64,000 bases of DNA from an uncultured Chloroflexia bacterium. Lineage in GTDB: Bacteria > Chloroflexota > Limnocylindria > QHBO01. Below, piece after piece: positions 5,626 through 64,000 of this stretch. Each line of letters starts with the position of its first letter. Within the stretch, counting starts at the first letter, position 1. Location: NCBI GenBank assembly GCA_963843015.1, contig CAWJIR010000009.1, forward strand, positions 170,226-234,225. The letters are read 5' to 3'. Made by a program: the position numbers and the translations under genes. Under the pieces are notes generated by a model. That model saw nothing but the letters and a program-made list of their open reading frames with translations. It ran no database searches and was not told the origin of the DNA.

Positions 5626-5742
5626 CGGACCCGGCCCAGGGATCGGGAGCGCCGGGCAGCGCTGCGGCGGGGTCGAACGGCATCGGCCCGATCCTACCCG
5701 GCACGTCGGCCGTCGCAGCCGCCTCCGCGCTACCATCGCGGC

Positions 5743-42940: not shown

Positions 42941-42975
42941 TCCCCCCGGCCCCGACCCGAGGATTCCAGCACGTC

Positions 42976-45066
42976 ATGAGCTCCTGGTTCAGCCGTACGG
43001 CCGCCGCGTATCGCGCGCAGGCCCACGCCCTCCGTCGCCTCCGCCCGACCCCGCTCGGCCTGCTCGTTCGCGTCCTCCTATCCGTGGTTTCCGCGTGGTT
43101 GAGCCTGCTGATCACGATCGCCCTCGCGCCGGGCATCGAGCGGGAGCCGGGGACCTCGGTCCTGCTGGCGGTCGCCGTCATCGGGGCGGCGGACTTCCTC
43201 ATCCGGCCGCTCCTTCTGGCGGCCGTCCTGCCCATCGGCTTCATCGCGGTCTTCGCGGTCGGCTTCCTGTACCGCGCGGCTTCGTTCTTCTTCATCCTGC
43301 CGCTCCTCGGCTTCGATCTCGGCGGATTCGGGAGCGCGGTGGTGGGGGCCGGGATCTACGCCCTGGTCAGCACGATCTTCGGCGGCCTGGTGGGCATGAC
43401 CGACGACGAGTCGTACGGCCAGCGGGTCGTCAACCAGGTCATCAAGGACCAGGAGAAGGTTCCCCACAGCGACGTGCCCGGGGTGGTCGTGATCCAGGTC
43501 GACGGCCTCGCGTTCCCGCTCCTGGTGGCTCAGGTCCGCTCGGGCACCCTCTCCACGCTGTCGCGATGGATCCGATCAGGCTCGCACCGGATGATGGAGT
43601 ACACCGCCGACCTCCCGTCCCAGACCTCCACCGGGCAGGCCGGCCTGCTCCACGGCAACGCCGCCGGCATCCCCGCCTTCCGCTGGTACGAGAAGGAGCG
43701 GCGGCGAATGATGGTCTCCAACCGCCCCGCCGACGCCGCCGAGATCGAGGCCCGCCTCAGCGATGGCAACGGGCTCTTGGCCAACGGCGGCGCATCGATC
43801 GACAACATGTTCTCCGGCGACGCCACCCACGTCCGAATGGTGATGAGCAAGCTGAACAGCAACCTGGACAAGGCCGGCCGCGATCGGAGCATGTACTACT
43901 TCCTGCTCAACCCGTACAGCATCGGTCGGACCATCGTCCGCACCGCTCGGCGAGATCCTGAAGGAGCTGTACCAGGGCTGGCAGCAGCGGCGGCGGGGGA
44001 TCGAGCCGCGGATGCACCGCGGCCTGAAGTTCGCCGGCCTGCGGGCCACTACCAACGTCGTCCTCCGCGACCTGAACCACGCCCTCGTCGCCGAGCAGAT
44101 GCTGCGCGGGACGCCGGTGATGTACTGCGACTTCGTGGACTACGACGACATCGCCCATCACACCGGGCCGGAGCGGCAGGAAGCCCTCCAGTCGCTGGCC
44201 GGGATCGACCGCTCCATCGGTCGCCTGGAGCGGATGGTGCCCGACTGTCCGCGACCGTACCGCTTCGTGATCGTCTCCGACCATGGCCAGAGCCAGGGGG
44301 CGACGTTCCGCCAGCGATACGGGGTAGACGATCGAGGACTGGCTTCGCACCCGAATCGGCGCGGACGTCACGCGCACGGCGACCGCGCCGGTGGAGGACG
44401 CGGGTCGCCTCTCGACCGTCCTGACCGAGGCCAGCTCCGCCGACGGCGCAACTGCCGCCCTCAGCCGTCGCGCCCTCGAAGGCAGCATGGACGACGGCGC
44501 GGTCGAGCTGGGCGCGCTCGGTGACGAGGTGGCCGAGGAGCCGACCGGCGAGCTGCCCGATCTCGTCGTCTGCGCGTCGGGCAACCTGGGGCTGGTCTAC
44601 TTCGGGGTCGCCGAACATCGCATGTCGTTGCCCGAGATCGAGGCCGCCTTCCCGGGCATGATGGACGAGCTCGTCGCCCACGAAGGCATCGGCTTCGCGC
44701 TCGTCCGATCCGGGGACGGCCATCGCCCTGGCCATCGGCCCGAACGGCCGCCACGACCTGTCGGACGGGAGCGTGACCGGCGTCGATCCGGTCGCCCAGT
44801 TCGGCCCCGACGCACCCGACCAGCTGCGCCACCTCGACGGCATCGACCACGTCGGCGACCTTGTCCTGATCAGCCGGCTCGACACCGGCACCGACGAGGT
44901 GGCCGCCTTCGAGGAGCTCATCGGCAGCCACGGCGGGATGGGTGGATGGCAGACCCAGCCGTGCCTGGTCTATCCCGCGGATTGGCCGGCGCCCGATGGG
45001 CGCCTGATGGGCGCCCCGGCCGTCCACCGGCAGCTGAAGCGCTGGATCGCCGCCGAGCAGGGATAG
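42976..45066 (+). CDS. Fusion protein: N-terminal 4-TM holin-like (phage-holin-4/DUF360-type) domain + alkaline-phosphatase-superfamily phosphodiesterase/pyrophosphatase domain (frameshifted)
   Basis: Transmembrane region LLVRVLLSVVSAWLSLLITIALAPGI...VLLAVAVIGAADFLIRPLLLAAVLPIGFIAVFAVGFLYRAASFFFILPLL...AVVGAGIYALVSTIFGGLV. Then ...VVVIQVDGLAFPLL...EYTADLPSQTSTGQAGLLHGN (metal-ligand Thr/Ser region of the AlkP core) and ...YCDFVDYDDIAHHTGPE...FVIVSDHGQSQG.... Confidence 0.6.
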
Positions 45067-45073
45067 GGGGCCG

Positions 45074-46129
45074 GTGGGCATCTTCGACGGCGTCCTCGGC
45101 ATCTTCAGCCACGACCTGGGGATCGATCTCGGAACGGCCAACACCCTGGTCACCGTCCGCCATCGCGGGATCGTCATCAGCGAGCCGTCGGTGGTGGCCA
45201 TGGAGACGCGCTCGAAGCGGGTCCTCGCCATCGGCGCCGAGGCGAAGCGGATGGTCGGTCGGACGCCGGCCAACATCGTCGCCATCCGGCCCCTGCGCGA
45301 CGGGGTGATCAGCGACTTCGACGTGACCGAGCAGATGATCCGGTACTTCATCGAGAAGGTGCACGACCGCTACTTCCGGATCCCGCGGCCCCGGGTCCTG
45401 GTCGGCATCCCGTCCGGCGTGACCGAGGTCGAGAAGCGAGCGGTGCGCGACGCCACCCTCAATGCCCACGCCCGCTGGGCTCGTCTCATCGAGGAGCCGA
45501 TGGCCGCCGCCATCGGCGCCGGCCTGCCGGTCAGCGAGCCATCAGGGTCGCTCATCGTCGACATCGGAGGTGGAACCACCGAGGTTGCGGTCATCTCGCT
45601 CGGCGGCATCGTCGTCAGTCGATCGATCCGGATCGGCGGGGACGAGATGGACCAGGACATCGTCAACTTCGCCCGCCGCGAGTACAACCTGCTGATGGGC
45701 GAGCGGACGGCGGAGGAGATCAAGATCGCCGTCGGCTCGGCGTACCCCGACCTCGACCCGCGGACCGTGACCTTCCGCGGCCGCGACCTGCTGACCGGAC
45801 TCCCGCGCAGCGTGGAGGTGAGCAGCGACCAGATCCGTGAAGCGCTGGAGCCGTCCGTGGCCGCGATCATCCAGGCCATCCGCGACACGATCGAGGAAAC
45901 GCCGCCCGAACTGGTGGCGGACATCATGGACCAGGGGATCGTGCTGGCCGGTGGCGGCGCTCTGCTGGCCGGGCTCGACCGTCGGGTGGCCGAGACGACC
46001 CAGATGCCGGTCCACGTCGCTGATGATCCCCTGACCTGCGTCGTGCGCGGGACGGGCCGGGTGCTGGAAGAGCTCGACACCCTGGAGCGGGTGCTCATCA
46101 CCGAGCAGTACACCCGCGCCCCCCGATAG
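45074..46129 (+). CDS. mreB: Rod shape-determining protein MreB
   Basis: ...DLGIDLGTANTLVTVRHRGIVISEPSVVAME...IRPLRDGVISDFDVTEQMIRYFIEKV...LIEEPMAAAIGAGLPVSEPSGSLIVDIGGGTTEVAVISLGGIV...GIVLAGGGALLAGLDRRVAETTQMPVHVADDPLTCVVRGTGRVLEE is intact and colinear with MreB. Confidence 0.95.
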   Translation: MGIFDGVLGIFSHDLGIDLGTANTLVTVRHRGIVISEPSVVAMETRSKRVLAIGAEAKRMVGRTPANIVAIRPLRDGVISDFDVTEQMIRYFIEKVHDRYFRIPRPRVLVGIPSGVTEVEKRAVRDATLNAHARWARLIEEPMAAAIGAGLPVSEPSGSLIVDIGGGTTEVAVISLGGIVVSRSIRIGGDEMDQDIVNFARREYNLLMGERTAEEIKIAVGSAYPDLDPRTVTFRGRDLLTGLPRSVEVSSDQIREALEPSVAAIIQAIRDTIEETPPELVADIMDQGIVLAGGGALLAGLDRRVAETTQMPVHVADDPLTCVVRGTGRVLEELDTLERVLITEQYTRAPR

Positions 46130-46136
46130 GCCGGGC

Positions 46137-47018
46137 ATGCGCCTGTCCTCGCTGCAGCCTGGTCGCCACACCTCGAGCCCGCACCGCCGCACCGGGCATG
46201 GGATCTGGTGGGCCGTCCTGCTCCTCGTGTCGCTCGGACTGGTCGTCGTCTCGGGAACGGATCCTGCCCGGTCCGTCCAGGAGCTCGGCGCCCGGGCGAT
46301 GGCCCCGGTCCATGCCGCGGTCAGCAGCATCGGAAGGGGGATCGCCGACGTCGTCGGGACGATCGGCGCAATCGGTCAGCTCCGCGCCGAGAACGACGAG
46401 CTGCGGAGCACCCTGGCCGCCGCGGAGCAGCGCATCGCCGAGCTCCAGGAGGCGGCGCGCGAGAATGCGCGGCTGCGGGCCCTCCTCGGCCTGCGCGCCG
46501 TCCTGGGCTGGGATCTGCTGCCGGCACGAGTGGTCGCGGTGGGGACCGGGGCCCTGACCTGGGAGGTGGCGATCGACGCCGGTCGGGACGATGGCGTCGC
46601 GGTGGGCATGCCGGTGATCGGGGCCGCCCCGGGCGGCGGCGCGCTGGCCGGCATGGTCGTCGAGGCCCGCAGCGATCGGGCCATCGTTCTGCTCACCGTT
46701 GACCCGCGAAGTCGAGTCGTCGCCCGGGACCAGGAGACCGACGCGCTCGGCGTGGTCCAGGGCCAGCCGGGTGGTCAGCTGGTCATGACCCAGGTCGCCG
46801 TCACCGACGAAGCCGCGGTCGGCGACACGATCGTCACCGCCGGGCTGGAGATCGAAGGGGTGGCCGCCTCTCCGTACCCGGCGGGGCTGCTCATCGGAAC
46901 CGTATCCGCTCTCGAGACCGATGCGAACGGTCTGACCCGGACGGTGTTCGTCCGCCCGGCTCTGGATCCCCGTGCCGTCGAATGGCTGATGGTGGTTCGG
47001 TCCGCGACGATCGACTGA
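46137..47018 (+). CDS. mreC: Rod shape-determining protein MreC
   Basis: N-terminal transmembrane segment; coiled-coil segment LRAENDELRSTLAAAEQRIAELQEAARENARLRALLGL; C-terminal beta-domain ...GMPVIGAAPGGGALAGMVVEARSDRAIVLLTVDPRSRVVARDQETDALGVVQGQPGGQLVM...GLLIGTV. It follows mreB immediately. Confidence 0.85.
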   Translation: MRLSSLQPGRHTSSPHRRTGHGIWWAVLLLVSLGLVVVSGTDPARSVQELGARAMAPVHAAVSSIGRGIADVVGTIGAIGQLRAENDELRSTLAAAEQRIAELQEAARENARLRALLGLRAVLGWDLLPARVVAVGTGALTWEVAIDAGRDDGVAVGMPVIGAAPGGGALAGMVVEARSDRAIVLLTVDPRSRVVARDQETDALGVVQGQPGGQLVMTQVAVTDEAAVGDTIVTAGLEIEGVAASPYPAGLLIGTVSALETDANGLTRTVFVRPALDPRAVEWLMVVRSATID

Positions 47019-49605: not shown

Positions 49606-52600
49606 GTGAACCGCTTCAGGCTCCCCGCTCACTTCGCCCTCGCCGTTGTTCTGCTCATCGGTGCGCCGTCGAGCCTGTCACCGGCACTCGCGACCGAACC
49701 GACGACCGCCCGACCCGGCGCGTCTGGGACCGACTGGTCCATTCCGCCGGCTCTCCCCGACGGACCAATCACGCTGCCGAGCGGCGAGGTCCTGCCGCCG
49801 ATGCCCGATGAGTTCGAGGTCCCGGGCATCCAGGCCGAGATGCTCGCCCAGCATGCGGACGACGCGCCGACACTCGCAGCGGGCGCCCAACCCGGCGCGG
49901 CTGGCACCGGGTCTCCGAGCGTTCCCCCCGGCAACTCGACGGTCGCCAACCCAGAGCAGTTACTGGCGGCTCCAAGCGGCGGGTTCGCCGCATTGCCGAA
50001 CGGCCTGCGCAAGGAAGTGTTCGGGTTCCTGCCGTACTGGATGCTGGCCGATTCCAAGCTCCAGTGGATGCGCTACGACCTGGTGTCGACGATCGCGTAC
50101 TTCGGCGTGGCGGCCGGCAGCGATGGAACGCCTGGCGACGGCTTCGACGGGCTGGAACGGCTGGACATCGTCGGCCATGACCGGGGTCATCAACGCGGCC
50201 CATGCTCACGGCGTCCGGGTGGTGCTGACCGTGACGATGATGGCCTGGGATGGTGGCGCCGCCCAGGCCGCCCTCCTCGCCGACGCGGCTGCACGGGCTC
50301 GACTCGTCAACGCCATCGTGGCGGCCGTCCGGGATCGGAGCGCGGACGGGGTGAACCTCGACTTCGAGCCGGTCTACGTGCCGCAGCGGGACCAGTACAC
50401 GTCTTTCGTCCGGCAGCTCAAGGCGGCGCTCGTCGCGGCCGGCGTGGGGTCGTACCTGACGGTTTGCACGACCGGCGGAGCTGCGAGCTGGGCGACCGGC
50501 TATGACCTCGCGGGGCTCGTGGCCCCCGGCGCCGCCGACAGCATCTTCGTGATGGGCTACGACTACAGCTGGTCGGGCTCTGCGCGGGCGGGTGGCGTGG
50601 CGCCGATGGAGTCGCCGTACATGCTCGACGTCAGCCAGTCGGTCGATGACTACCTGCGCCGCGTGCCCGCCATCCAAGCTCATCTGGGGCGTTCCCTACT
50701 ACGGCCGAGCCTGGCGAACGACCTCCGACGCGCTGAACGCCGCGACCGTACCCGGCGCATCCGCGTCATCGGTGGCCTACTACTACGTCGGCAACCAGGT
50801 CCTGCCAGGCCCAGCATGGGCGCCGATGGGACGCGGTCGGCCAGGTGCCCTGGTTCGCGTACTACGACAGCGTTGCCGGATCGTGGGTCGAGGGCTACTA
50901 CGACGACGTCCAGTCCCTGGCGGTGAAATGGGACATGGTCAACCAGCGTGGCCTGGCGGGCACGGGGATCTGGGCCCTGCTCATGGACGAGGGCAGCAGC
51001 GACCTGTGGAACCTGCTCGCCACGAAGTTCGTCTCGGATGTCGCGCCGCCGACCGGCGGCATCGTGCCGCTGCCGGCGGGAACGGACGCCTCCGGCGTCG
51101 GCGTGTCCTGGCGCCACCTCGACATCGGCTCTGGGGTCGGTTCGTACACGGTGCAGGTTCGCGATCGCGCGGGCGGCGAATGGACGTCCTGGCAGACCGA
51201 TGTCAGCTGGACGTCGGCCCACTTCGTGGGGACCGAAGGCCATTCCTACGAGTTTCGGGTCTCGGCCGTGGATATGGTCGGCAACCGCCAGCCGTGGACG
51301 CCAGCGGCGCTCGACGTCAGCTCGAGCCTCCAGGTCGGCGGGTTCGCGGGGGTGAACGTCGGGGTCCTGAACGTCCGGTCCGGGACGGGCACGGGATTCG
51401 CCGTGCTCGACCAGCTGGCGGCGGGTGACCGGCTCGCGATTCTCGGCGGCCCGGTGCTGGCCGGCGGACTGCAGTGGTACTGGGTCCAGTTCGACTGGAC
51501 CGAATGGCCATCGTCGTCGTTCCCGCGGTATGGCTGGGCAGCCGCCGGCGACGCGAGTGGTCCCTTCCTCGTGCCGGCGCCGGCCCCGACGGTCACCACG
51601 ATCAGCCCAGCCATCTCCGGGTACGCCGTGAGTCCGCGGCGCATCTCGCCAAACGGGGACGGGACCGCCGAGAGCACCGCGGTCACCTTCTCGCTGGCCG
51701 CCGCGGCCAGCGATGCCCGCCTCGACGTGATCAATGGCGGCGGCACGGTGGTCGCGAGCCAGGCCCTCGGTCCCCTCGCACCCGGCACGCAAGCCGTTTC
51801 CTGGGATGGCCGCGCGGCCGGTGCCCCGGTCGCCGACGGTGTGTACCTGCTCCGCCTCACGGTGGTCGACGGTGCCGGGTCCCACGTCGCGCCGGTGGCG
51901 GGGGTCGACTGGAGCGCGCTGTCGACGTGGGGCGTCGTCGCGAGCGTGACGCCGCCGGGCGCGACCTACATCCCGCTCGCCCCCTCTCGCCTCCTCGACA
52001 CCCGGGTCGGCAACGGCCTGGCCGGGACGTTCGCGGCGGGCACCCCGCGCACGTTCCAGGTCGCCGGCCGGGGCGGGGTCCCGGCCAACGCGGTGGGCGT
52101 GACCGGCACCCTGACCGCCACCGGCTCGAGCGGCCCCGGCTTCGTGTTCCTCGGTCCCGATCCGACGGCCACCCCGACGAGCTCGACCTTGAACGTGCCG
52201 GCGGGGGACACCCGGGCGGGCGGGGTGACGGTGGCCCTCGGCCCGGGCGGGACCCTGAGCGCGACCTTCGGCTACACCGGGACGACCCACCTCCTGTTCG
52301 ACGTGACCGGCTACTTCGTGCCCGATGCCAGCGGCGCGACCTACATCCCGCTCGCCCCCTCTCGCCTCCTCGACACCCGGGTCGGCAACGGCCTGTCCGG
52401 GACGTTCGCGGCGGGCACCCCGCGCACGTTCCAGGTCGCCGGCCGGGGCGGGGTCCCGGCCAACGCGGTGGGCGTGACCGGCACCCTGACCGCCACCGGC
52501 TCGAGCGGCCCCGGCTTCGTGTTCCTCGGTCCCGATCCGACGGCCACCCCGACGAGCTCGACCTTGAACGTGCCGGCGGGGGACACCCGGGCGGGCGGGG

Positions 52601-53076
52601 TGACGGTGGCCCTCGGCCCGGGCGGGACCTTGAGCGCGACCTTCGGCTACACCGGGACGACCCACCTCCTGTTCGACGTGACCGGCTACTTCGTGCCCGA
52701 TGCCAGCGGCGCGACCTACATCCCGCTCGCCCCCTCTCGCCTCCTCGACACCCGGGTCGGCAACGGCCTGTCCGGGACGTTCGCGGCGGGCACCCCGCGC
52801 ACGTTCCAGGTCGCCGGCCGGGGCGGGGTCCCGGCCAACGCGGTGGGCGTGACCGGCACCCTGACCGCCACCGGCTCGAGCGGCCCCGGCTTCGTGTTCC
52901 TCGGTCCCGATCCGACGGCCACCCCGACGAGCTCGACCTTGAACGTGCCGGCGGGGGACACCCGGGCGGGCGGGGTGACGGTGGCCCTCGGCCCGGGCGG
53001 GACCCTGAGCGCGACCTTCGGCTACACCGGGACGACCCACCTCCTGTTCGACGTGACCGGCTACTTCGTGCCCTGA
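49606..53076 (+). CDS. Secreted multidomain protein: GH18-like domain + Fn3-like + SH3b-like + FlgD-Ig-like domains + three near-identical 125-aa C-terminal repeats of the same type as in the preceding gene (GH18 part frameshifted)
   Basis: Signal peptide MNRFRLPAHFALAVVLLIGAPSSLSPALA. GH18-like segment ...EVFGFLPYWMLAD...YDLVSTIAYFG... ...VNAAHAHGVRVVLTV...ADGVNLDFEPV (D-x-x-N-x-D-x-E variant of the GH18 catalytic motif) ...IFVMGYDYSW...YYGRAW... ...GIWALLMDEGS. Then VSWRHLDIGSGVGSYTVQVRD...EWTSWQTDVSWTSAHFVGTEGHSYEFRVSAVDMVGNRQ (Fn3-like); NVRSGTGTGFAVLDQLAAGDRLAILGG.VLAGGLQWYWVQ (SH3b-like); ISPNGDGTAESTAVTFSLAAAASDARLDVINGGGTVV...VYLLRLTVVDGAGS (FlgD-Ig-like); then 3 x ([124 protein letters not shown]). 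Confidence 0.6.
51961..53073 (+). repeat. Three head-to-tail copies of a 375-bp coding unit (A 51961-52335, B 52336-52710, C 52711-53073), essentially identical at the DNA level
   Basis: Exact 375-nt periodicity is visible, e.g. gcgacctacatcccgctcgccccctctcgcctcctcgacacccgggtcggcaacggcctg recurs at 51961, 52336 and 52711. I found only two single-base differences among copies (gcc vs tcc in ggcctgGccggg of copy A; ctg vs ttg in gggaccCtgagc of copy B). The identical 81-aa antisense ORFs at 51966, 52341 and 52716 are a by-product of this repeat. Confidence 0.9.
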
Positions 53077-53972
53077 CCACCCTCCAGGACACGACTCCAG
53101 AGCTCCCACATCGCGTCGCGGTAGCGCTGGACGCTGAACCGCGCCGCCGTAGCCGCGACCAGCGCAGGATCGTAGTCGGGCACCACCGCGAGCGCTGCCT
53201 CGTAGGCGCCATCGGTGACGAGGGACCCATTCACCCCATCGGTCACGATTTCCCGCAGCCCTCCGACCGCGGCGGCGACCACCCAGCGCCCTGACGCGAT
53301 CGCCTCCGCGGCGACGAGGCCGTAGGGCTCGACCCTCGACGGAACGAGCACGACGTCGTGGCTCTCCATCAGGGCCGGCACCTCGGCGGGGTCGACCTCC
53401 CGCAGTCCTGGCCCGACGAGCGTATCCGCCAGTCTGGCTGCCACGTCCACCCCTTTCTCCGCCACGTCCCCTCCGAGGTAGAGGACGCGGCGAGGGGACG
53501 GCCGCGGCGTGGGGCGAAAGCGCGCGAGGTCGATACCGGGCGGAATGACTTCCGCCCGACGCCCGAGGCGCTCGACGAGCGCAGCGGTCTCGGGCGAATT
53601 CGCGACCACGGCTGCAGCCGACCGGATCACGGTGCGCGCCAGCCATCGATGGACCGCGGAACGCTGGGCCGCGCTGCGAACGTCCGCGCCATGGGCGTAG
53701 ACGACCAGCGGCAGGCCGCGCAGGCGCGCGGCCAGCAGGGCTGGTGGCCCGCTGGCGAGGACGAAGTGCGCTTCCACACCGTCGAAACGGCCACGGGCGG
53801 TCATCGCCTCCCAGGCCAGCCGCGCGAACCGTCCCCAACGCGAGCCATCGTACCGATGCGGCGCCACGACGGTAGCCCGCAGCCTGGGATCGGCGAGCCG
53901 ATCTCGGACGAATACACCTGCGGCCGGCCGGTCAGCGGTCGGGTAGCGGGTCGTCACCACCAGCAGGCGCAT
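53061..53972 (-). CDS. Glycosyltransferase family 4 (GT-B, GT1-like)
   Basis: [29 protein letters not shown]... ...[15 protein letters not shown]...[48 protein letters not shown] carries the EX7E-type motif. Its stop is convergent with, and overlaps, the end of the 49606 gene. Confidence 0.7.
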
Positions 53973-54007
53973 GGAGCCCGACGGTAGCACGGGTAGAATC
54001 GCGGGCA

Positions 54008-54742
54008 ATGTCGACGATCGCCCCGCCGCGCCGTGCCGACGGACGCCTGCCGAACCAGCTGCGCCCGGTGAAGATCGTGCCCGACTACCTGAAGTTCGCC
54101 GAGGGCTCGGCCCTGATTCGGGTGGGCGATACGCGCGTCCTGTGTGCGGCCACACTCGAGGATCGCGTCCCGCCCTTCCTGCGGGGGAAGGGCACCGGCT
54201 GGGTGACCGCCGAGTACAGCATGCTGCCGCGCGCCGGCACCGAGCGGTCGCAGCGTGAGGCGAGCAAAGGCCGGATCGGCGGCCGGACCCACGAGATCCA
54301 GCGCCTGATCGGACGCTCCCTGCGTTCGGTGGTGGACATGGCCGGCCTCGGCGAACGGAGCCTGACCCTCGACTGCGACGTCATCCAGGCCGATGGCGGG
54401 ACCCGCACCGCGTCCATCACCGGCGCCTACGTGGCCCTCGCCCGCGCCCTCCACAAGTACGGCATGGAGCGGCTGCTGACCGGCCAGGTGGCGGCCGTCA
54501 GCGTCGGGATGTCGGCGAGCGGCCTCCTCCTCGACCTCGACTACGCCGAGGACTCGACCGCGGGGGTGGACTTCAACGTCGTGATGCTCGACGACGGGCG
54601 GTTCGTCGAGATCCAGGGCACCGCGGAGCACATCCCGTTCAGCTCGGACCAGATGACCGAGATGGTCTCCCTCGCCTCCGCCGGCATCCGGCAGCTGTAC
54701 GAGCTCCAGCGCGAGGCGATTGCGGCTCCCGCCGCCGAGTGA
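54008..54742 (+). CDS. rph: Ribonuclease PH
   Basis: ...[101 protein letters not shown]...[27 protein letters not shown] is intact. Confidence 0.9.
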
Positions 54743-55375
54743 GCCGCCTCCTGGTCGCCACCCACAACCCGGGCAAGCTGGCCGAGTTCCAGCGGCTGCT
54801 CAGCGGGCTCGGTGCCGAGGTCGTCAGCGCCGCGGACCTGGGCCTCGACCTCGACGTTCCCGAGCCCCATGACACGTACGCCGAGAACGCCGCCGACAAG
54901 GCGATCGCCTTCTGCCGCGCATCGGGCGAGATCACCCTGGCCGACGACTCGGGCATCGAGGTCGCGGCCCTGGACTGGGGCCCTGGCGTCCGGTCGGCGC
55001 GGTTCGCGGGACCGGATCGGATCACCGGGGCGGACCTGCTCCTCAAACGGCTGGCCGGCGTCGAGCGACCGACGGGCCCGGATGGTCTGCTGGCTTGCGC
55101 TGGCCCAGCCGTCCGACGAGCGGGCCGGCGAACCGACGGTCGAGCTCTTCGCCGGCATGGTCGAGGGCCGCTGTCGCGGATCAGCGGCGGGGGAGCGGCG
55201 GCTTCGGCTACGACCCGGTCTTCGAGCTCCCGGACGGCCGGACCACCGCCGAGCTCGACGACGACGGCAAGGATCTGGTCTCGCACCGGGGACTGGCGGT
55301 CGCGGCGGCCATGCCACGCCTCCGAGAGTTGGTCGCGCGCCACGCTAGAATGCCCGCCATAGCGGAGGACGCATG
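54739..55375 (+). CDS. rdgB: dITP/XTP pyrophosphatase (Ham1 family), frameshifted
   Basis: [91 protein letters not shown]... then ...[10 protein letters not shown].. and ...[39 protein letters not shown] in other frames. Its start overlaps the rph stop. Confidence 0.8.
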
Positions 55376-55977
55376 AACGAGGCCTCGCCCGTGCGCGTCC
55401 ACCCCACCGCCGATGTCTCCGCCGAGGCGAGCATCGGCGCCGGCACCAGCATCTGGAACCAGGCCCAGGTCCGCGAGCGTGCCCGGATCGGGGTGGGCTG
55501 CGTGATCGGCAAGAACGTGTACGTGGACTTCGACGTCGTGGTCGGCGACCGGGTCAAGATCCAGAACAATGCGTCGCTCTACCACGGCGTCACCGTCGAG
55601 GACGGCGTGTTCATCGGTCCGCATGTGTGCTTCACGAACGACCGCCTGCCGCGGGCGGTGAACCCCGATGGATCGGCCAAGACCGACGACGACTGGGAAG
55701 TCGGCCCCATCCGCGTCCGCACCGGTGCGGCCGTGGGGGCCTCGACGCGTCGTCGTTCCGGGCGTGACGATCGGCCGATGGGCGCTGGTGGGTGCCGGCA
55801 GCGTGGTGACCGCCGACGTCGCCGACTACGCGCTCGTGGTCGGCAACCCCGCGCGCCGGATCGGCAGCGCCTGCCCGTGCGGCGAGCCGCTCCGCGACGG
55901 GCCGGACGGGACCGCGTTCCGCGGCGCGTGCCCCAGCTGCGGCCGCCCCTTCCCGCCGCCGGAGGATGCGCTGTGAA
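55373..55977 (+). CDS. Left-handed beta-helix (hexapeptide) sugar N-acetyltransferase, WbpD-like; one frameshift
   Basis: VHPTADVSAEASIGAGTSIWNQAQVRERARIGVGCVIGKNVYVDFDVVVGDRVKIQNNASLYHGVTVEDGVFIGPHVCFTND shows hexapeptide repeats. The C-terminus ...VVPGVTIGRWALVGAGSVVTADVADYALVVGNPARRIG... follows. Confidence 0.65.
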
Positions 55978-57075
55978 GGTCGCTCTCCGTGGTTGGCGCC
56001 CGGCCGCAGTTCGTGAAGGCCGCTCCGGTCAGCCGCCAGCTGCGCACCCGCCATCGCGAAATCCTGGTGCATACCGGGCAGCACTACGACGACGCGATGA
56101 GTGACGTCTTCTTCCGAGACCTCGGCCTGCCGCCGCCCGACCGCGATCTCGGGGTCGGCAGCGGGTCGCACGCGACCCAGACGGCCGAGATGCTGCGTCG
56201 GCTCGAGCCGGTGCTGGTCGATGAGCGTCCTGACGTCGTCCTGCTCTACGGCGACACGAACTCGACCCTGGCCGGCGCCCTGGCGGCCGCCAAGCTCAGC
56301 GACCTGGCCGAGCAACGACCCCTGCTCGCCCACGTAGAGGCCGGTCTCCGCTCATTCAACCCATCCATGCCCGAGGAACGGAACCGGATCGTGGCTGACC
56401 ACCTCTCCGACCTCCTCCTGGCGCCGACCCCGCCAGCCATGGCGAACCTGGCCCGCGAGGGCCTGGCCGATCGGGCCACGCTGGTCGGAGACGTGATGGT
56501 CGACGCGATGGACGCCGCCGTCGAACGGGCGCCCGGCGCGCTGCCACCGGAAGCGCAGGATGCCCCGGGATACGTGCTCCTGACCCTGCATCGGCCGTCG
56601 AACGTCGACGATCCGGTGCGGCTCGGCGCCTGGCTCGCCGCCGCGGCACCAGCCGGACCGGTCGTCTTCCCGGTCCATCCCCGGACGCGCGCGGTGCTCG
56701 ACCGGGCTGGGGTGGCGGTCCCGAGCGGCGGTGACGCTCATGGAGCCGGTCGGCTACCTCACCATGATTGCCCTCGAGCGTGGCGCTCGGGTGATCGCCA
56801 CCGACTCGGGAGGCGTTCAGAAGGAGGCCTACCTGGCCGGCGTTCCCTGCGTGACCCTGCGAAGCGAGACCGAATGGGTCGAGACCATCGAGGCCGGGTG
56901 GAACCGCCTGGCCCCCAACCCCTCGGACCTCGGTCCGGCCCTGGTCGAGGCCGCCGCCACGCCGTCTTCGTTGCCGCGTCCCGCTCTGTATGGGGATGGA
57001 CATGCGGCCGGGCGGATCGTGGATTCCCTCGAGCGGCTGGCGGCTCACCGCGAAGCGGCACCGGTGGCCTCGTGA
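55974..57075 (+). CDS. UDP-N-acetylglucosamine(-uronate) 2-epimerase, non-hydrolysing (WecB/WbpI-like); one frameshift
   Basis: ...[68 protein letters not shown]...[23 protein letters not shown]...[35 protein letters not shown]...[61 protein letters not shown]. Confidence 0.8.
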
Positions 57076-58183
57076 TCCCGATCGCGCAGCCCCAGATCGG
57101 CCCCGAGGAGCAGGCCCTCGTGGCGGAGACGCTCGCGTCCGGCTCGCTGGCCCAGGGCCCCCGCGTCCGCGAGCTCGAGGAGCGCTTCGCGGCCCTGGTC
57201 GGCGTGTCCGCACGCGGTCGCCACCTCCTCGGGGACGACGGCGCTCCATCTCGCCCTGCTGGCCGCCGGCGTCGGGCCCGAGCGACGAGGTCATCACCGT
57301 CCCGTTCACCTTCATGGCCAGCGGCACGAGCATTCTCTATGTCGGGGCCCGGCCGGTCTTCGTCGACGTCGACGCCCGCTCGTTCATGGCGGTCCCGGAT
57401 CGCGATCGAGGCCGCCATCACGCCCCGGACGAAGGCGATCATGCCGGTCAGCCTCTACGGCCAGCCCGCCGACATGCCCGCCATCGAGGCCATCGCCGAG
57501 CAGCACGGCCTGGCGCTCATCGAGGACGCGGCCCAGACCCATGGGGCCTCCATCGACGGACGCGCGTCGGGGAGCTTCGGACAGGGCGTGTTCAGCTTCT
57601 ACCCGACCAAGAACATGACCACCGGCGAGGGCGGCATGATCACGACCGCCGATGGCGCGCATCTCCGAGTGGGCGCGCCTTCGCCGCGAGCACGGGATGA
57701 AGGTGCGCTACCACCACGACGTGCTCGGCTACAACTTCCGGATGAGCGATATCCACGCGGCCATCGGGCTGGCGCAGCTCGACAAGCTGGCCGGCTTCAA
57801 CGACCGCCGGATCGCGACCGCCGCCCGCTACGAGGCCGAGCTCCGCGGCGTGGTCACGCCATGGGTCCGGCCCGGGACGGTCCACGTCTTCCACCAGTAC
57901 ACCATTCGCGTCCTCAAGCGCGACGCGTTCGTCGAGCGCGCTCCGCGAGCGGGGCGTGGGCACCGGGGTCTACTACCCGATCCCGCTGCATCGGCAGAAG
58001 CCGTTCATCGAGCTCGGCTATGGCGACCAGTCGTTCCCGGTCAGCGAGCAGCTGTGCGAGGAGGTCGTCTCCATCCCGGTCCATCCGGGCCTGAGCGACG
58101 CGGACGTGGACACGGTGATCGAGGCCGTGAACGCGGTCGCCACCGAGCTCGGGTCGCATCCGGAGAGCCGGGTCGCGGTATGA
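57072..58183 (+). CDS. DegT/DnrJ/EryC1/StrS-family PLP sugar aminotransferase (WbpE-like), frameshifted several times
   Basis: ...[43 protein letters not shown]...[37 protein letters not shown]...[71 protein letters not shown]...[27 protein letters not shown]...[11 protein letters not shown].... The active-site Lys context is FYPTKN. Confidence 0.8.
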
Positions 58184-59193
58184 GCGGCAGCAGGGCGGGA
58201 GGACCGTCGGCGCGGGCCGCCGTCATCGGCCTCGGGATGATGGGCGCCAACCATGCCCGGGTCCTGAACGAGCTCCCCGAGGTGGACCTCGTGGCGGTGG
58301 CGGATCTCGATCCAGAGGCCGTGGCTCGCGCCACCGCGGGGCGCTCGGCCCGGGGGTACACCGATCCGTCGGCGCTCCTGGCCAACGAGCACCCGGATCT
58401 CGTCGTGGTCGCGGTCCCGACCTCGCTCCACCTGGAGACGACGGTCGAGGCCCTGAGCAGCGGCGCGCACGTCCTGGTCGAGAAGCCGATTGCCGCGACC
58501 CGGAGCGAAGCCGAGGCGATGATCGCGGCCGCCGAGACAGCCGGCCGCATGCTCACCGTCGGCCACATCGAGCGCTTCAACCCGGCCATCCGGGAGCTCA
58601 GCCGACGCCTCGACGCCGGCGAGCTGGGCCGGGTCTTCCAGGTCCGGGCCTCGCGGCTCGGGCCTTTCCCGGCGCGCGTCCGCGACGTCGGGGTCGTCGT
58701 CGACCTCGCTCCCCATGACCTGGACATCATGCGGCTGCTCCTCCATTCGGAGCCGATCCGGATCTACGCCGAGACCGAGCAGCGGATCCACACCGACCAC
58801 GAGGACCTGTTCACCGGGCTGCTGAAGTTCGAGTCCGGAGCGATCGGGCTGCTCGAGATCAACTGGCTGACGCCGACGAAGGTCCGGAAGCTGAGCGTGA
58901 CCGGTGAACGCGGGATGTACGAGGCCGACTACCTGACCCAGGATCTCGTGTTCTACGCCAATCCCGACCAGGTCCTGGTCGCCGAAGGGGAGATGACGCG
59001 GCGCGCGGTCCAGCGCCGGGAGCCGCTCGCGGTGGAGCTGTCGGAGTTCGTCTCCGCCATTCGCCGGGGAGGACCGCCCCCGGTCGACCCCCGGGATGCG
59101 CTGATTGCCATGCTCCTGGCGCGGGCCATGGTGGACTCCGCATTGCGCGGCATCGTCATCGGCGCCGAGGACCTGAGACCGATCCTGGCATGA
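58180..59193 (+). CDS. Gfo/Idh/MocA-family NAD-dependent sugar 3-dehydrogenase (WbpB-like)
   Basis: ...AAVIGLGMMGANHARVLNELPEVDLVAVADLDPEAVARA...VVVAVPTSLHLETTVEALSSGAHVLVEKPIAATRSEAEAMIAAAETAGRMLTVGHIERFNPAIREL... is intact (~337 aa). Confidence 0.75.
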   Translation: MSGSRAGGPSARAAVIGLGMMGANHARVLNELPEVDLVAVADLDPEAVARATAGRSARGYTDPSALLANEHPDLVVVAVPTSLHLETTVEALSSGAHVLVEKPIAATRSEAEAMIAAAETAGRMLTVGHIERFNPAIRELSRRLDAGELGRVFQVRASRLGPFPARVRDVGVVVDLAPHDLDIMRLLLHSEPIRIYAETEQRIHTDHEDLFTGLLKFESGAIGLLEINWLTPTKVRKLSVTGERGMYEADYLTQDLVFYANPDQVLVAEGEMTRRAVQRREPLAVELSEFVSAIRRGGPPPVDPRDALIAMLLARAMVDSALRGIVIGAEDLRPILA

Positions 59194-60465
59194 GGATTGC
59201 CGTTGTCGGGCTTGGGCACATCGGCCTTCCCCTGGCCGTGCAGTACGCGAGCCGCGGCCACGAGGTCATCGGCTGCGACCTGGACGCCCGTGTGGTCGAC
59301 GCCATCAACCGCGGGGAGTCTCCGCACGACGACGAGGCCGAGGTCAGCGAGCAGGTCCCGGCGCTCGTCCGCGAGGGCCGTCTGCGGGCCACCACCGATG
59401 ACGCTGCCGGTGTCCGCGACGCGGAGGTGGTCGTCGTCATCGTGCCGGTCGTCGTGGACGAGGCGCGCCAGGTGGACTTCTCCCAGATCGACGCCGCCAC
59501 CCGTGACCTGGCCCGTGGCCTGTCAGCGGGCACGCTCGTCATTTTCGAGACGACGCTTCCGATCGGCACCACCCGCGATCGGCTGGGCCCGATGCTCGAA
59601 GCCGGATCCGGCCTCCAGGTTGGCCGCGACCTCCAGCTCGCCTTCTCGCCCGAGCGGGTCCTGGTTGGCCGCGTTCTGCTCGACCTGCGGCGCTACCCGA
59701 AGGTCGTCGGTGGGCTGAGCCCGGAGGCGACCGAGCGTGCGGTCGCGTTCTACACCGCCGTCCTCGAGCCGGGAACCGAGATTCGCGCCATGGCCAGTGT
59801 CGAAGCCGCCGAGATGACGAAGCTGGCCGAGACCACCTACCGCGATGTGAACATCGCCCTGGCCAACGAGTTCGCCCAGGTGGCGGACCGCCATGGGATC
59901 GACGTCACCGAGATCATCGCGGCCGCGAACTCCCAGCCATACAGCCACATCCATCAGCCCGGTGTCGGGGTGGGCGGCCATTGCATCCCGGTATATCCCC
60001 ACCTGCTGTTCCACGACGAGCCGACCATGCGCATCCCGCCTCTGGCCCGTGCCGTGAATGACGGCATGGCGGCCTACGCCGTCGGCCACCTCGCCGAGGC
60101 GCTCGGACCGCTGGACGGCGTCGCGGTGCTCGTCCTGGGCATCGGTTACCGAGGAGACGTTCGCGAGGACTTCTTCAGCAGCGCCCTGCTGCTGCGCGAG
60201 GCGCTGGTGGCAGCCGGCGCCACGGTGCACGGCCACGACCCCTACTTCGACGCCGAGCACCTTCTGCGGCGCGGATTCGTCCCGTACGACTTCGCGGCCC
60301 CGGCCCCGGTTCGCGCCGCCATCCTCCAGGCGGCTCACACGGCCTATCAGCGATCTCGATCCGGCCGCGATCCCCGGCCTCGAGGTCCTCGTCGACGGAC
60401 GGAATGCGATGAATCGGGAGCGCATCGAGGCAGCCGGCGTCCGCTACCTCGGAGTCGGCCGCTGA
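59190..60465 (+). CDS. UDP-N-acetyl-D-glucosamine/mannosamine 6-dehydrogenase (nucleotide-sugar dehydrogenase, WbpA/WecC-like); C-terminal frameshift
   Basis: MRIAVVGLGHIGLPLAVQYASRGHEVIGCDLD (Rossmann fold) ...LVIFETTLPIGTTRD...FSPERVLVGRVLLDLRRYPKVVGG...EMTKLAETTYRDVNIALANEFA...GVGVGGHCIPVYP (catalytic Cys)...VLVLGIGYRGDVREDFFSSA... Confidence 0.8.
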
Positions 60466-61253
60466 ACGTGGAGGACCCCGAGCCGACACCGTCGGTCGGT
60501 CTCGCCGCCGGGCGCGGGGTGTGGGTGGTGATCCCGACCTACAACGAGCGCGAGAACCTGACCCGCGTGGTCGAGGCCGCGCTGGCCGCGTTGCCCGAGG
60601 CTCATGTGCTGGTGGTGGATGACCGCTCACCCGACGGGACCGGGGAGCTGGCAGACACGCTCGCCGCCACCAACGCCCGGATCGAAGTCCTCCACCGACC
60701 GGGGAAGGAGGGCCTTGGGGTCGCCTACCGCGACGGGTTCAAACGGGTCCTCGACAAGCCGGGAACGATGGCGGTCGTCCAGATGGACGCCGACCTCAGC
60801 CATGACCCTGCAGACCTGCCCCGCCTCATCGCGCCCCTGATGCGCGACGCGGATCTCGTCCTCGGGACGCGCTGGATGCCCGGTGGCGGCACGGTGGGCT
60901 GGCCATTCCTCCGCCGGATCGTGAGCCGCGGCGGGACCCTCTTCGCTCGAGTCGTCCTGCTGCTGCCCTACCGCGATCTGACCGGCGGCTTCAAGGCATG
61001 GCGCCACGAGCTGCTCGAGGCGATCCGCCTGCGCGAGGCCTCCAGCCAGGGCTATGGCTTCCAGGTGGAGACAACCTGGTGGGCCCACCGCCGTGGTGCG
61101 AAGATCCGCGAGGTCCCGATCATGTTTCGCGAGAGGACGGCGGGGCGCTCGAAGATGTCCGGGTCGATCGTGGCCGAGGCCATCGTTCTCGTGCTTCGCC
61201 TCCGCTGGGGAGCCATCCGCCGACCGTCCCGCCAGCCCCGTGGCGAGCGGTGA
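60466..61253 (+). CDS. GT2 polyprenol-phosphate glycosyltransferase (DPM1/Ppm1/GtrB-like)
   Basis: ...VWVVIPTYNERENLTRVVEAALAALPEAHVLVVDDRSPDGTGELADTLAATNARIEVLHRPGKEGLGVAYRDGFKRVLDK...AVVQMDADLSHDPADLPRLIAPLMRDADLVLGTRWMPGGG. The DxD motif is in QMDAD. Confidence 0.75.
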
Positions 61254-61329
61254 AGGTATCGGGTACCATCCGCGCTCGCCCGCCCAGTTCCCTTGTTGAT
61301 CGCGCCTGCCCGGCGCTGACTGGAGCCCG

Positions 61330-63085
61330 TTGACGTATCGCAGCCGCCCCGCCCCTCGCCGTCGGCACCGGGCCCGCTGGCAGGACGAGCTTCGGACCCA
61401 GCGTCTGCTGGTCGGTGGCTTTGCCGTCGCGATCGCGATCGCCCTCGGGCTGTTCGGGATGAGCGCGTGGAACGCGTACTACGACTCTCACCTGCGGCAG
61501 GTGATCGTGGTCGAGGGCACCAGCGTTTCCACGGAGGCACTCGACCTCCGCCAGGCGATCATGGGTGCGGAGCTACAGGCGACCGGGACCGATCTCTCCG
61601 AGCAGGTGGGCGGTGTCGAGGGGCGGCCTGCTACCGCTCGTGACCCGGTCCTCCAGCAGCAGCTTTCGGTCATCTCCGACCAGTTCTCGAACCTGACGAG
61701 CACGGCCACCGGCTCCATCGTCGACGGTCTGTTCCAGGCCACCCGCGCCGATGGGTTGGGCATCAGCGTCAGTGATGCCGAGATCGACGCCGAGATCGAG
61801 ACCCGGCAGACGCTGCCGGCTCGCATCCAGGTCTCGATCATCGCGGTCGATGCTCTCCCCGCGGATGCGGCGACCGGTGCCGAGCCGACCGACGAGGACT
61901 TTGCCCGGGCCGAGGACGAGGCCGCCGAGATCCGCGCCCAGCTCGACGATGGCGGCGACTTCGCAACCATTGCGGCCGCGCAGTCGGATGACGCCGGCTC
62001 GGCGCAGGCTCAGGGCCTCGTCGGGTGGGTGTCCGAGGACGACGTCCAGTACGGATATCTCTTCCCGCTGGCCGACGGCGTCGAGTCAGGTGAGCTCGCA
62101 GGACCGTCGCGAACCGACGAGGGGTACGTCATCCTGCGCGTCGAGGACCGCACCGAGGCCGGCCCGTTCACCGGTTTTCTCGATCAGCTCGACGCGGCCC
62201 GGGTCACCGACGAGGACTACCGCGCCTACGTGTCCGACGAGCTCCTCCGCCGCGCCTTCCGGACCCATTTCGAGGAGGAGGTGGCGGTCTCGCCCGCGCC
62301 GCAGCGCGAGATCGCCCAGATCCTGATCCTCAACGACCAGGGCACGCCCGCTCCCGAAGCAGCGGATCCGACATCTCCTCGCCCAGCCGATCCCCGGTGC
62401 CGAAGACCAGACCGCGGCCACCGAGGAGCAGTGGCAGGCCGCCCTGGCTCGGGCCGAGGCGTGGTACGAGCAGGTTCAGGACCCCGAGGCCGACTGGTTT
62501 GCTCTCGCCACCGAGAGCGACGATCCCGGCTCGCGCAATAACGGCGGCGACCTCGGCTGGTACGACCCGACGACCGGCCAGTTCGTGCCGGAGTTCGAGG
62601 CCGCGGTCGCCCGGCTGGCGGTCGGCGAGATCAGCGAGCCGGTCCGGACCGACTTTGGCTACCACGTCATCCAGGTGACCGACCAGCGCACGACCGCCCT
62701 CGATTTCGCCGACCGCTTGATCGCCGACCTGCAGGCCGATCCCGACAGCTTCGGGGCGCAGGCGCTGGCCAACAGCGAAGACTCCGCGACCAGGACCGAC
62801 GAGGGCCACCTCGGCTGGGTGGCCCGCTACGAGGGGACCGCGGCCCGGGAGGACGCGATCTTCGCGATGACCGAGGTCGGTGAGATCAGCTCCGCTCCGG
62901 TGATCGATGGCAACCAGATCTGGATCTTCCAGCTCCTCGCCATCAACGAGGAACGCATCATCGAAGAAAGCCGGCTGAGCACGATCAAGTCCACGGGCTA
63001 CACACGCTGGTACGACGAGCTGAAGGCCGACGGCGAGATCTGGATCGACACCCAGCTCCAGCTGGATTCGACCTCGGCGGCGTAG
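61330..63085 (+). CDS. Membrane-anchored parvulin-type peptidyl-prolyl isomerase (PrsA/SurA-like); one frameshift near 62340
   Basis: N-terminal transmembrane segment [19 protein letters not shown]. Long SurA-N-like chaperone region. PpiC domain ...[52 protein letters not shown] and a second parvulin-like segment ...[13 protein letters not shown]...[27 protein letters not shown]. Confidence 0.65.
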
Positions 63086-63096
63086 GCCGCGGCCAC

Positions 63097-64000
63097 CATG
63101 GCGGGTGCCTCGCGATCGGTGGATGAGCTTCTGGCCCAGGCCGGCCTCGATCCGGCCGATGGCGTGCAGGTGGTCGCCGCCGACCGGCTGGCGAGCGCGG
63201 CGTTCGACCCCGGTCTCCCGCTCCTCGTCCTGGCCGCCGAGCCGGAGAGCGACCGCGTGCAACGGGGTTCCCTCCCGGGGCGCCACGCGCGCCGCGGCCC
63301 GGCCGCCGTGCTGGGCGCGCTCTACCCACTCGGACACCTTGCGCGTTCCCTGCCCGCAGGCGAGGCGGTGCGGGTCGAGGAGCTGGACGATGCGAGGCTG
63401 GCGGCCAGTGACTGGTTGGTGCCACCCCTCGCACCCGAGGCGAACCTGGCGTCCCCGCATGGGATGGCTGCCATCAGCGCCCGCCTCCGGGCACCGGACG
63501 GTTGCCCCTGGGACCGACGCCAGGATCACCGCACCCTCCGGCCGTACCTGCTGGAGGAGGCCTACGAGACGGTCGATGCCATCGAGCGCGGCAGCCCGGC
63601 AGACCTCGCCGAGGAGCTCGGCGACCTGTACCTCCAGGTCATCCTCCATGCCCAGCTCGCGGCGGAAGACGGTGCCTTCGACCTCACCGACGTGTACCGG
63701 ACGCTGGGGACGAAGATCATCCGTCGACACCCCCATGTCTTCGGCGATGTGGCGGTGAGCGGCGTGGACCAGGTCGTCACCAACTGGGAGACGATCAAGT
63801 CCACCGAGCGTGAAGACGCCGGCCGCCCAGGCGCGTCCTTCGGCGACGTGGCCCGCACGCTGCCTGCCCTGCCGGCCAGCCGCGAGATCCAGGAGCGGGC
63901 ATCGGCCCTCGGCTGGGACTGGCCCGACGTGGTCGGCGTCTGGGACAAGGTCGGCGAAGAGCTGGACGAGCTGCGCGCCGCCGCCGGTGGACCGGCCCCC
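63097..64000 (+). CDS. mazG: Nucleoside triphosphate pyrophosphohydrolase MazG fused to an N-terminal YabN-like methylase-fold domain (3' end beyond window)
   Basis: ...DPGLPLLVLAAEPE... (tetrapyrrole-methylase-like), then MazG repeat 1 ...CPWDRRQDHRTLRPYLLEEAYETVDAIERG...LAEELGDLYLQVILHAQLAAEDGAFDLTDVYRTLGTKIIRRHPHVFGD and the start of repeat 2 ...FGDVARTLPALPASREIQERASALGWDWPDVVGVWDKVGEELDEL. Confidence 0.75.

Follow-up and report, generated by a model that had tools for sequence, protein, structure and literature searches.

The 64,000-nucleotide stretch analysed here (the window; contig CAWJIR010000009.1, positions 170,226 to 234,225) comes from an uncultured Chloroflexota bacterium of the Limnocylindria lineage and carries, towards its end, a compact set of sugar-nucleotide genes. 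As judged from the predicted proteins, these genes most likely encode a five-enzyme route of the Wbp/Wlb type to a UDP-2,3-diacetamido-2,3-dideoxy-hexuronate, the mannuronate form UDP-ManNAc3NAcA. We consider it probable that three propositions hold together: that the five genes form an operon for this precursor, that the sugar is built into a wall glycan attached by LCP enzymes, and that the numerous breaks in the reading frames are assembly errors. An earlier interpretation, made from the letters alone and called below the sequence-only reading, had already named a Wbp-type pathway, which we retain as the preferred interpretation. The epimerase and acetyltransferase assignments are well supported by closeness to characterised enzymes, whereas the other three sugar enzymes are placed at the level of their families. 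A Pfam scan of the long open reading frames (ORFs) between 53 and 63 kb of the window recovered all gene families named in that reading, in the same order and with starts within a few bases.

In the corrected reading frames, six consecutive 4-nt start-stop overlaps (GTGA or ATGA) chain seven genes: rph, rdgB, and those for a left-handed beta-helix acetyltransferase, a 2-epimerase, a DegT-family aminotransferase, a Gfo/Idh/MocA-type 3-dehydrogenase and a 6-dehydrogenase. Further downstream, 2-53 nt separate the 6-dehydrogenase gene from that of a family 2 glycosyltransferase (GT2), 76 nt separate the latter from the gene of a peptidyl-prolyl isomerase (PPIase), and about 12 nt lie between the PPIase gene and mazG. 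The whole forms one co-directional series, rph-rdgB-[acetyltransferase, 2-epimerase, aminotransferase, 3-dehydrogenase, 6-dehydrogenase]-GT2-PPIase-mazG. The tight, overlapping arrangement described earlier thus holds true and extends to rph and rdgB, which had been seen as an interruption of the cluster. Because the six overlaps run from rph to the 6-dehydrogenase gene, these two genes instead make up the 5' end of this apparent operon. A promoter and terminator scan of positions 52800-64000 returned no promoter-like and one terminator-like element, at or below the expectation from shuffled sequence and uninformative for an organism of 71% GC.

The epimerase is one of the two well-supported members of the pathway. 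Against the structures of the Protein Data Bank (PDB), this protein scores 358 bits with the UDP-2,3-diacetamido-2,3-dideoxy-glucuronate (UDP-GlcNAc3NAcA) 2-epimerase of Thermus thermophilus HB27 (8SXY), 238 bits with the M. jannaschii enzyme 4NEQ and about 120 bits with other UDP-N-acetylglucosamine (UDP-GlcNAc) 2-epimerases. In the Thermus enzyme, three substitutions fit a 3-acetamido-uronate substrate: Trp307 replaces the arginine that binds the 3-OH, Tyr96 replaces His/Gln, and Ala18 replaces Leu/Met (PMC10622841). In the alignment, the window's protein keeps Ala18, Tyr96 and Trp307, as well as Arg12, Gln14, Lys17, Asp98, Arg302 and Glu306; catalytic and UDP-binding residues are likewise retained. 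Its score of 255.6 bits with the wecB equivalog model TIGR00236 lies above the cut-off of 210, and its fold and score place it in that family; its substrate signature does not, the 3-OH-binding arginine being replaced by tryptophan. The enzyme is thus predicted to be specifically of the UDP-GlcNAc3NAcA type, and the WbpI-like assignment is borne out by both the score and the three specificity residues. For the acetyltransferase, the WbpD-like assignment agrees with the best PDB match, WlbB (3MQG; 138 bits, E 3e-39, residues 8-192), the Bordetella UDP-GlcNAc3NA N-acetyltransferase; the next matches reach 107 and 98 bits.

The remaining three enzymes are less sharply defined. With WbpE (3NYU), the aminotransferase scores 252 bits, which ranks second among its PDB matches, and with perosamine synthase, ArnB and QdtB 243-248 bits, a range in which scores do not discriminate. 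The 3-dehydrogenase had been called WbpB-like. Its Gfo/Idh/MocA fold family holds, but it is not an orthologue of WbpB or WlbA: its nearest relative is the archaeal UDP-GlcNAc 3-dehydrogenase (NCBIfam equivalog NF040723; 284.2 bits over profile positions 2-300 of 302), and the order of steps may differ as a result. Its best PDB match is 7BVJ (111 bits), probably GnnA. The entries 3Q2I and 3Q2K, presumably the Chromobacterium and Bordetella WlbA, reach only 84 bits, equal to inositol dehydrogenases. Thousands of metagenome homologues exist, some of them named UDP-GlcNAc 3-dehydrogenase by JGI. As for the 6-dehydrogenase, it is a bona fide nucleotide-sugar dehydrogenase, with 317 bits to TIGR03026 (cut-off 189.8) and, among structures, 224 bits to 4R16 and 193 bits to Cap5O. 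Automated JGI names of its close homologues read UDP-GlcNAc dehydrogenase in seven cases and UDP-ManNAcA dehydrogenase in one.

Together, these enzymes would operate as follows. UDP-GlcNAc would be oxidised at C6 and at C3, in either order, then transaminated at C3 and N-acetylated, and a final 2-epimerisation would yield UDP-ManNAc3NAcA. To judge from syntenic relatives, a small phosphoglycosyl transferase and family 4 glycosyltransferases (GT4) would assemble an undecaprenyl-linked glycan containing this sugar. A Wzx-like flippase would export the glycan, a Wzy_C-domain protein would process it and LCP enzymes would attach it to peptidoglycan. The expected outcome is an anionic secondary wall polymer that would be part of the core equipment of the class, not a variable antigen.

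Species-representative genomes yielded 438 related loci, of which the best 80 served to assess conservation; almost all of these 80 come from metagenome-assembled genomes (MAGs) of Candidatus Limnocylindria or unclassified Chloroflexota. The order acetyltransferase-epimerase-aminotransferase-3-dehydrogenase-6-dehydrogenase-GT2-PPIase-MazG-GT4 is kept wherever the contig covers the block, and the block occurs in essentially all of the 80 loci. Since this order is conserved across relatives, the sugar block is a conserved core locus and not a variable antigen island. Two arrangements of its surroundings are found. In the sub-clade of the window, the order is mreB-mreC-[PKD protein-GH18 protein-GT4 on the minus strand-rph-rdgB]-block. 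In another sub-clade (L050, L051, L054, L066, L076, L077 and L081), mreB and mreC abut the acetyltransferase gene and PKD/GH18-like genes follow the downstream GT4 gene, which amounts to a local block swap. For this mreBC adjacency, the loci of the relatives span only 10 kb upstream of the dehydrogenase gene. The sequence-only reading had linked the cluster to its neighbouring surface-protein genes; rather than lying away from such genes, orthologous clusters keep local synteny with PKD/GH18 genes even after the block swap, which lends this link some weak backing.

Of glycopolymer assembly genes, the window itself holds only the GT4 and the GT2. Search for flippase, polymerase and ligase genes just beyond its end had been suggested, and in relatives such genes do occur 1-20 kb past the position corresponding to the window end: Bac_transf, GT4, Wzy_C, two LCP, two more GT4s and Polysacc_synt. 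In the nearest relatives, mazG is followed by a GT4, a 229-aa phosphoglycosyl transferase (Bac_transf; EPS_sugtrans 261 bits), a 516-aa Wzy_C-domain membrane protein and an LCP ligase, and then by a GGDEF protein, a second LCP, housekeeping genes, two more GT4s and a Wzx-type Polysacc_synt protein. Because relatives carry these assembly genes just past the window end, the idea of a dedicated wall glycopolymer is favoured. In two further stretches from relatives, which lie beyond the first LCP gene (L086, 1-9830; L087, 1-9802), we observed GGDEF, the second LCP, glutamine synthetase, two GT4s and Polysacc_synt. There, the gene call for the L087 flippase joins it to a GT4 domain in a 633-aa product, perhaps again an artefact of a frameshift.

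Several findings weigh against this interpretation. The phosphoglycosyl transferase, Wzy_C, LCP and Wzx genes lie outside the window and are known from relatives only. Aminotransferase scores cannot separate WbpE from enzymes of the perosamine, ArnB or QdtB type. The 3-dehydrogenase falls below the 450-bit cut-off of NF040723, the next model (inositol dehydrogenase) giving 147 bits, and no chain named WbpB or WlbA occurs among its 56 PDB matches at E<=1e-10. By specific models and by structures, the 6-dehydrogenase is nearest to UDP-N-acetylmannosamine (UDP-ManNAc) dehydrogenases, the models scoring below their cut-offs. Seven relatives (L026, L052, L062, L063, L071, L073 and L078) have no DegT gene between epimerase and 3-dehydrogenase, and none was found within their fetched flanks; these relatives either encode the enzyme at another site or follow a different pathway. 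Housekeeping genes (rph, rdgB, mazG, the PPIase gene, glnA) are interspersed, so that synteny may partly reflect a small, stable genome. Finally, the bases that break the frames are inserted outside homopolymers, unlike the classic Nanopore error signature.

Among the alternatives, the one that survives best keeps the sugar pathway and changes the destination of the glycan: the Wzy_C protein would act as an O-oligosaccharyltransferase and glycosylate the PKD/GH18 proteins or an S-layer, not peptidoglycan. Wzy_C domains occur in bacterial O-oligosaccharyltransferases such as PglL and WsaB, the Wzy_C-domain membrane protein adjoins the phosphoglycosyl transferase in relatives, and genes for PKD/GH18 secreted proteins lie no more than about 10 kb from the block in either arrangement. 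However, the Wzy_C gene lies between two LCP ligase genes, and LCP enzymes join polymers to peptidoglycan; moreover, the PKD/GH18 matches are partly to common Ig-like domains. We hold protein glycosylation to be improbable, although it deserves to be kept in mind ahead of the other alternatives.

A second alternative accepts the five enzymes but splits them between two products: a WecB/WecC pair would make UDP-ManNAcA, and a GnnA/GnnB-like dehydrogenase and aminotransferase would, with the acetyltransferase, make UDP-GlcNAc3NAc, with no uronic acid in it. This would agree with the proximity of the 6-dehydrogenase to UDP-ManNAc dehydrogenases, with the epimerase score above the wecB equivalog cut-off, with the proximity of the 3-dehydrogenase to enzymes that act on UDP-GlcNAc itself and with the relatives whose block lacks the aminotransferase. 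Yet the epimerase has all three Thermus substitutions for the bulkier 3-acetamido-uronate (Trp for Arg, Tyr96 and Ala18) and scores about three times higher with the Thermus enzyme than with typical UDP-GlcNAc 2-epimerases, and translational coupling joins the five genes, which are always found together in the same order, save for the seven relatives without the aminotransferase. Two separate products therefore seem a little less probable still than protein glycosylation, and a single route to UDP-ManNAc3NAcA is retained.

Its genes are complete only once their reading frames are repaired. The plain ORF list and the G+C content at third codon positions of each ORF proved misleading, as frameshifts fuse and split genes (a 701-aa 'epimerase+DegT' and a 687-aa '6-dehydrogenase+GT2' are two such fusions), and were replaced by a seven-state frame hidden Markov model (HMM) and a frameshift-aware alignment. 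Both a plot of G+C by codon position and a reading in three frames show the coding frame jumping within genes. Relatives were found through the uninterrupted 3-dehydrogenase; one of them (L001) offers an unbroken syntenic locus on a megabase-scale contig, and its proteins were aligned with the window DNA by dynamic programming. Full-length products were recovered, 78-97% identical to those of L001 and free of in-frame stops, at the cost of 12 one-base skips (Table 1). Only the GT4, rph, 3-dehydrogenase and GT2 genes are unbroken, a fact that the sequence-only reading had overlooked when it called the five-enzyme set complete: the five families are present, but nine frameshifts affect four of the five sugar genes, and the set is complete only if these are, as is likely, sequencing errors.

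The 12 breaks most likely reflect single bases inserted in error in the assembly and not gene decay, because they are absent from relatives, are typical of Nanopore MAGs and leave corrected frames under purifying selection. All 12 are extra bases in the window, and none occurs in five related sequences compared; for instance, the L004 contig, with 94.5% identical DNA, lacks the insertion at about 57939 in the aminotransferase gene. Downstream of that insertion, synonymous and nonsynonymous differences from L004 stand at 9:1 in the corrected frame and at 1:10 in the other two frames. An intact 424-aa protein from a metagenome matches the stitched 6-dehydrogenase at 96% identity over 100% of the length of the latter. 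According to the frame HMM, about 57 mid-ORF frame switches occur over the 64 kb, roughly one per kb, housekeeping rdgB included; the estimated density is about one per 0.7 kb in the operon stretch against one per 1.1 kb window-wide. When the orthologous genes from rph to GT4b were compared in 85 related loci (L001-L085), 33 frame changes were counted among the 264 genes of Microflora Danica MAGs, which are Nanopore assemblies (PMC12313526), and a single one among the 469 genes of the other loci, which were taken as short-read. The window itself is probably a Nanopore metagenome assembly. That the operon consists instead of genuine pseudogenes, the pathway being lost in this strain, is very improbable: although nine breaks in four of five sugar genes, their somewhat raised density and their position outside homopolymers would suit it, the switches extend all over the 64 kb and into the rdgB, PPIase and GH18 genes, a load that would leave almost no intact genes, every event is a +1 insertion with no nonsense codon, the corrected frames show a strong synonymous excess, the frameshifted aminotransferase is more similar to its L001 counterpart (91%) than the intact 3-dehydrogenase is (83%), and Nanopore MAG loci often show similar breaks at other positions, while the loci taken as short-read have almost none.

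Table 1. Genes of the operon region and its surroundings, with the one-base skips needed to restore each reading frame. Coordinates are positions in the window, except in the last three rows, which refer to the loci of the second arrangement.
Feature	Coordinates	Strand	One-base insertions skipped	Match
mreB	45074-46126
mreC	46137-47015
GT4 glycosyltransferase, ~303 aa	53061..53972	-	none (uninterrupted)	Pfam Glycos_transf_1 + Glyco_transf_4
rph (RNase PH), first of the overlapping series	54008..54742	+	none (uninterrupted)	Pfam RNase_PH + RNase_PH_C; 97% identical to L001
rdgB, Ham1-family nucleoside triphosphate (NTP) pyrophosphatase	54739..55376	+	2: 55066, 55172	Pfam Ham1p_like
Left-handed beta-helix N-acetyltransferase, putative (WlbB/WbpD-like)	55373..55976	+	1: 55748	Hexapep in two frames; stitched protein 93% identical to L001
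UDP-2,3-diacetamido-2,3-dideoxy-glucuronate 2-epimerase-like (WbpI/WlbD type)	55973..57075	+	2: 55982, 56730	Epimerase_2 over two frames
Pyridoxal phosphate-dependent sugar aminotransferase, DegT/WbpE family	57072..58183	+	5: 57207, 57274, 57404, 57654, ~57940	DegT fragments in three frames; stitched protein 91% identical to L001
NAD-dependent sugar 3-dehydrogenase, Gfo/Idh/MocA	58180..59193	+	none (uninterrupted)	Pfam GFO_IDH_MocA + C-terminal domains
UDP-N-acetylhexosamine 6-dehydrogenase (WbpA/WecC clade)	59190..60465	+	1: 60351	UDPG_MGDP_dh N-terminal + central domains
GT2 polyprenol-phosphate sugar synthase, putative (DPM1/Ppm1-like catalytic domain)	60468 or 60519..61253	+	none (uninterrupted)	Pfam Glycos_transf_2
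Membrane-anchored parvulin PPIase, ~584 aa	61330..63085	+	1: 62347	Pfam Rotamase; SurA_N_3 below threshold; stitched protein 78.5% identical to L001
MazG-family NTP pyrophosphohydrolase, runs past the window end	63098..64000	+		tblastn 78.6% to L001 MazG residues 6-302; Pfam MazG in relative
mreB, second arrangement	~5200-6250
mreC, second arrangement	~6290-7110
Acetyltransferase gene, second arrangement	from ~7200

The G+C content of the window is 70-74% throughout, in keeping with the Limnocylindria, whose genomes average 2.4 Mb and 69% G+C (PMC10608941). For rdgB, the Ham1p_like match covers profile positions 1-106 only, in one frame, and the stitched protein is 85% identical to that of L001. 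The GT4 gene was correctly placed upstream on the opposite strand by the sequence-only reading; the 364-aa ORF that reaches 54155 over-extends into rph, and the start is probably the ATG at 53972. With the 307-aa GT4 of L001, the protein gives a single tblastn high-scoring segment pair at 72% identity. The gene is divergent from rph, at a distance of 35 bp (window positions 53973-54007). Should both starts be correct, each promoter would have to extend into coding sequence.

Downstream of the sugar genes, the GT2 gives 100 bits with the Pfam GT2 model, and its sole PDB match is the Dol-P-Man synthase of P. furiosus (5MLZ, 120 bits); scores with the AglJ, PpgS and dolichyl-P-hexose transferase models, at 53-69 bits, are far below their cut-offs. 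It resembles the catalytic domain of Dol-P or polyprenol-P hexose synthases, and nothing links it to the diacetamido-uronate. Likeness to Dol-P-mannose synthase agrees with the polyprenol-phosphate GT2 proposed earlier, albeit with another start, as 60466 is out of frame. The PPIase had been described as a PrsA-like foldase. Firmicutes PrsA is a lipoprotein of about 290 aa with a lipobox cysteine and a single parvulin domain, whereas the protein encoded here has an N-terminal transmembrane helix, a stretch from which cysteine and hence a lipobox are absent (cysteine does occur in the mature protein), and its 590-aa L001 orthologue has two Rotamase regions. With its length of about 584 aa and the two parvulin domains of relatives, it is better described as PpiD/SurA-like. 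The '166-aa ORF' at 62585-63085 is its C-terminal piece.

Upstream, mreB and mreC were both confirmed. Of the two triple-repeat surface proteins reported between them and the GT4 gene, the first has a PKD domain. The second (50845-53076) is not a separate gene but the C-terminal part of a frameshifted GH18-domain protein of about 1150 aa (~49606-53076; frameshifts near 50173, 50674 and 50804), which combines a domain resembling chitinase or endo-beta-N-acetylglucosaminidase with fn3 and FlgD_ig domains and whose L001 orthologue has 1046 aa. That the glycan is a ligand or a decoration of these PKD/GH18 repeat proteins is speculation. Upstream of mreB, positions 42274-44521 hold a long frameshifted ORF with a Phage_holin_4_2 (PF04020) membrane domain and, in the neighbouring frame, a fragment of a type I phosphodiesterase/nucleotide pyrophosphatase.

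In its plainest form, the cluster simply carries a well-known pathway into a new lineage. Limnocylindria are an abundant uncultured class of soil and freshwater Chloroflexota, on whose wall chemistry our literature search returned nothing relevant, nor on diacetamido sugars in Chloroflexota. For this widespread class, the cluster predicts that a particular and uncommon acidic sugar belongs to the core components of the envelope, which makes the sugar a target for wall chemistry, for lectin or antibody probes and for phage-receptor work in soil Chloroflexota. A bolder version, which we advance tentatively and think rather unlikely as a whole, is that all Limnocylindria build an essential anionic ManNAc3NAcA wall polymer, functionally equivalent to teichoic or teichuronic acids, with a precursor operon hard-wired beside mreBC, with the polymer as anchoring ligand or attached glycan of the PKD/GH18 surface proteins nearby and with a hybrid pathway. 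The latter may combine an epimerase and acetyltransferase of the Thermus/Bordetella type with an archaeal-type 3-dehydrogenase acting on UDP-GlcNAc, in a step order unlike that of Pseudomonas. Independently of this version, the cluster sets a non-orthologous 3-dehydrogenase in a pathway that is otherwise Thermus/Bordetella-like. On the technical side, with about one single-base insertion per kb, ORF-based readings of the window need frameshift-aware methods, and the rate of frame changes provides a quality signal for Microflora Danica public data in high-GC Chloroflexota.

Comparison with known systems places the cluster among several precedents. In Geobacillus stearothermophilus, a secondary cell wall polymer containing 2,3-diacetamido-2,3-dideoxymannuronic acid anchors S-layer proteins that lack SLH domains (PMC4232325). 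An anionic diacetamido-mannuronate polymer in a Gram-positive-type envelope is likewise expected here, and Geobacillus offers a precedent for the ligand idea, the polymer of Limnocylindria being predicted from genes. The same five steps from UDP-GlcNAc that are predicted here are carried out by the Pseudomonas aeruginosa B-band enzymes WbpA, B, E, D and I and by Bordetella WlbA-D (PMC10622841); WbpE is among the top aminotransferase matches and WlbB is the top acetyltransferase match, whereas WbpB orthology fails. Unlike the Wbp and Wlb genes, which belong to variable O-antigen or lipopolysaccharide loci of diderms, those of the window occupy a conserved Chloroflexota core locus with LCP ligases nearby.

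An archaeal likeness is seen in the 3-dehydrogenase. Methanococcus maripaludis genes MMP0350-0353 make diacetamido-glucuronate for N-glycans, and it is to the corresponding NF040723 family that the 3-dehydrogenase is nearest (284 bits against 147 for the next model). It differs from that family in a score under the 450-bit cut-off and in its bacterial host, and the other enzymes are closer to Wlb and Thermus proteins. A close counterpart is the cluster of Thermus thermophilus HB27 (WP_011172736-739 and WP_148187554; 2-epimerase structures 8SXV-8SYH), where the same five activities are encoded in one cluster with consecutive accessions, in the order I-D-E-B-A instead of D-I-E-B-A, and where the epimerase, at 358 bits, has identical active-site and specificity residues. 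Two features set the Chloroflexota cluster apart from it: a 3-dehydrogenase that resembles the archaeal UDP-GlcNAc 3-dehydrogenase, and the fusion of the sugar genes to an rph-rdgB operon.

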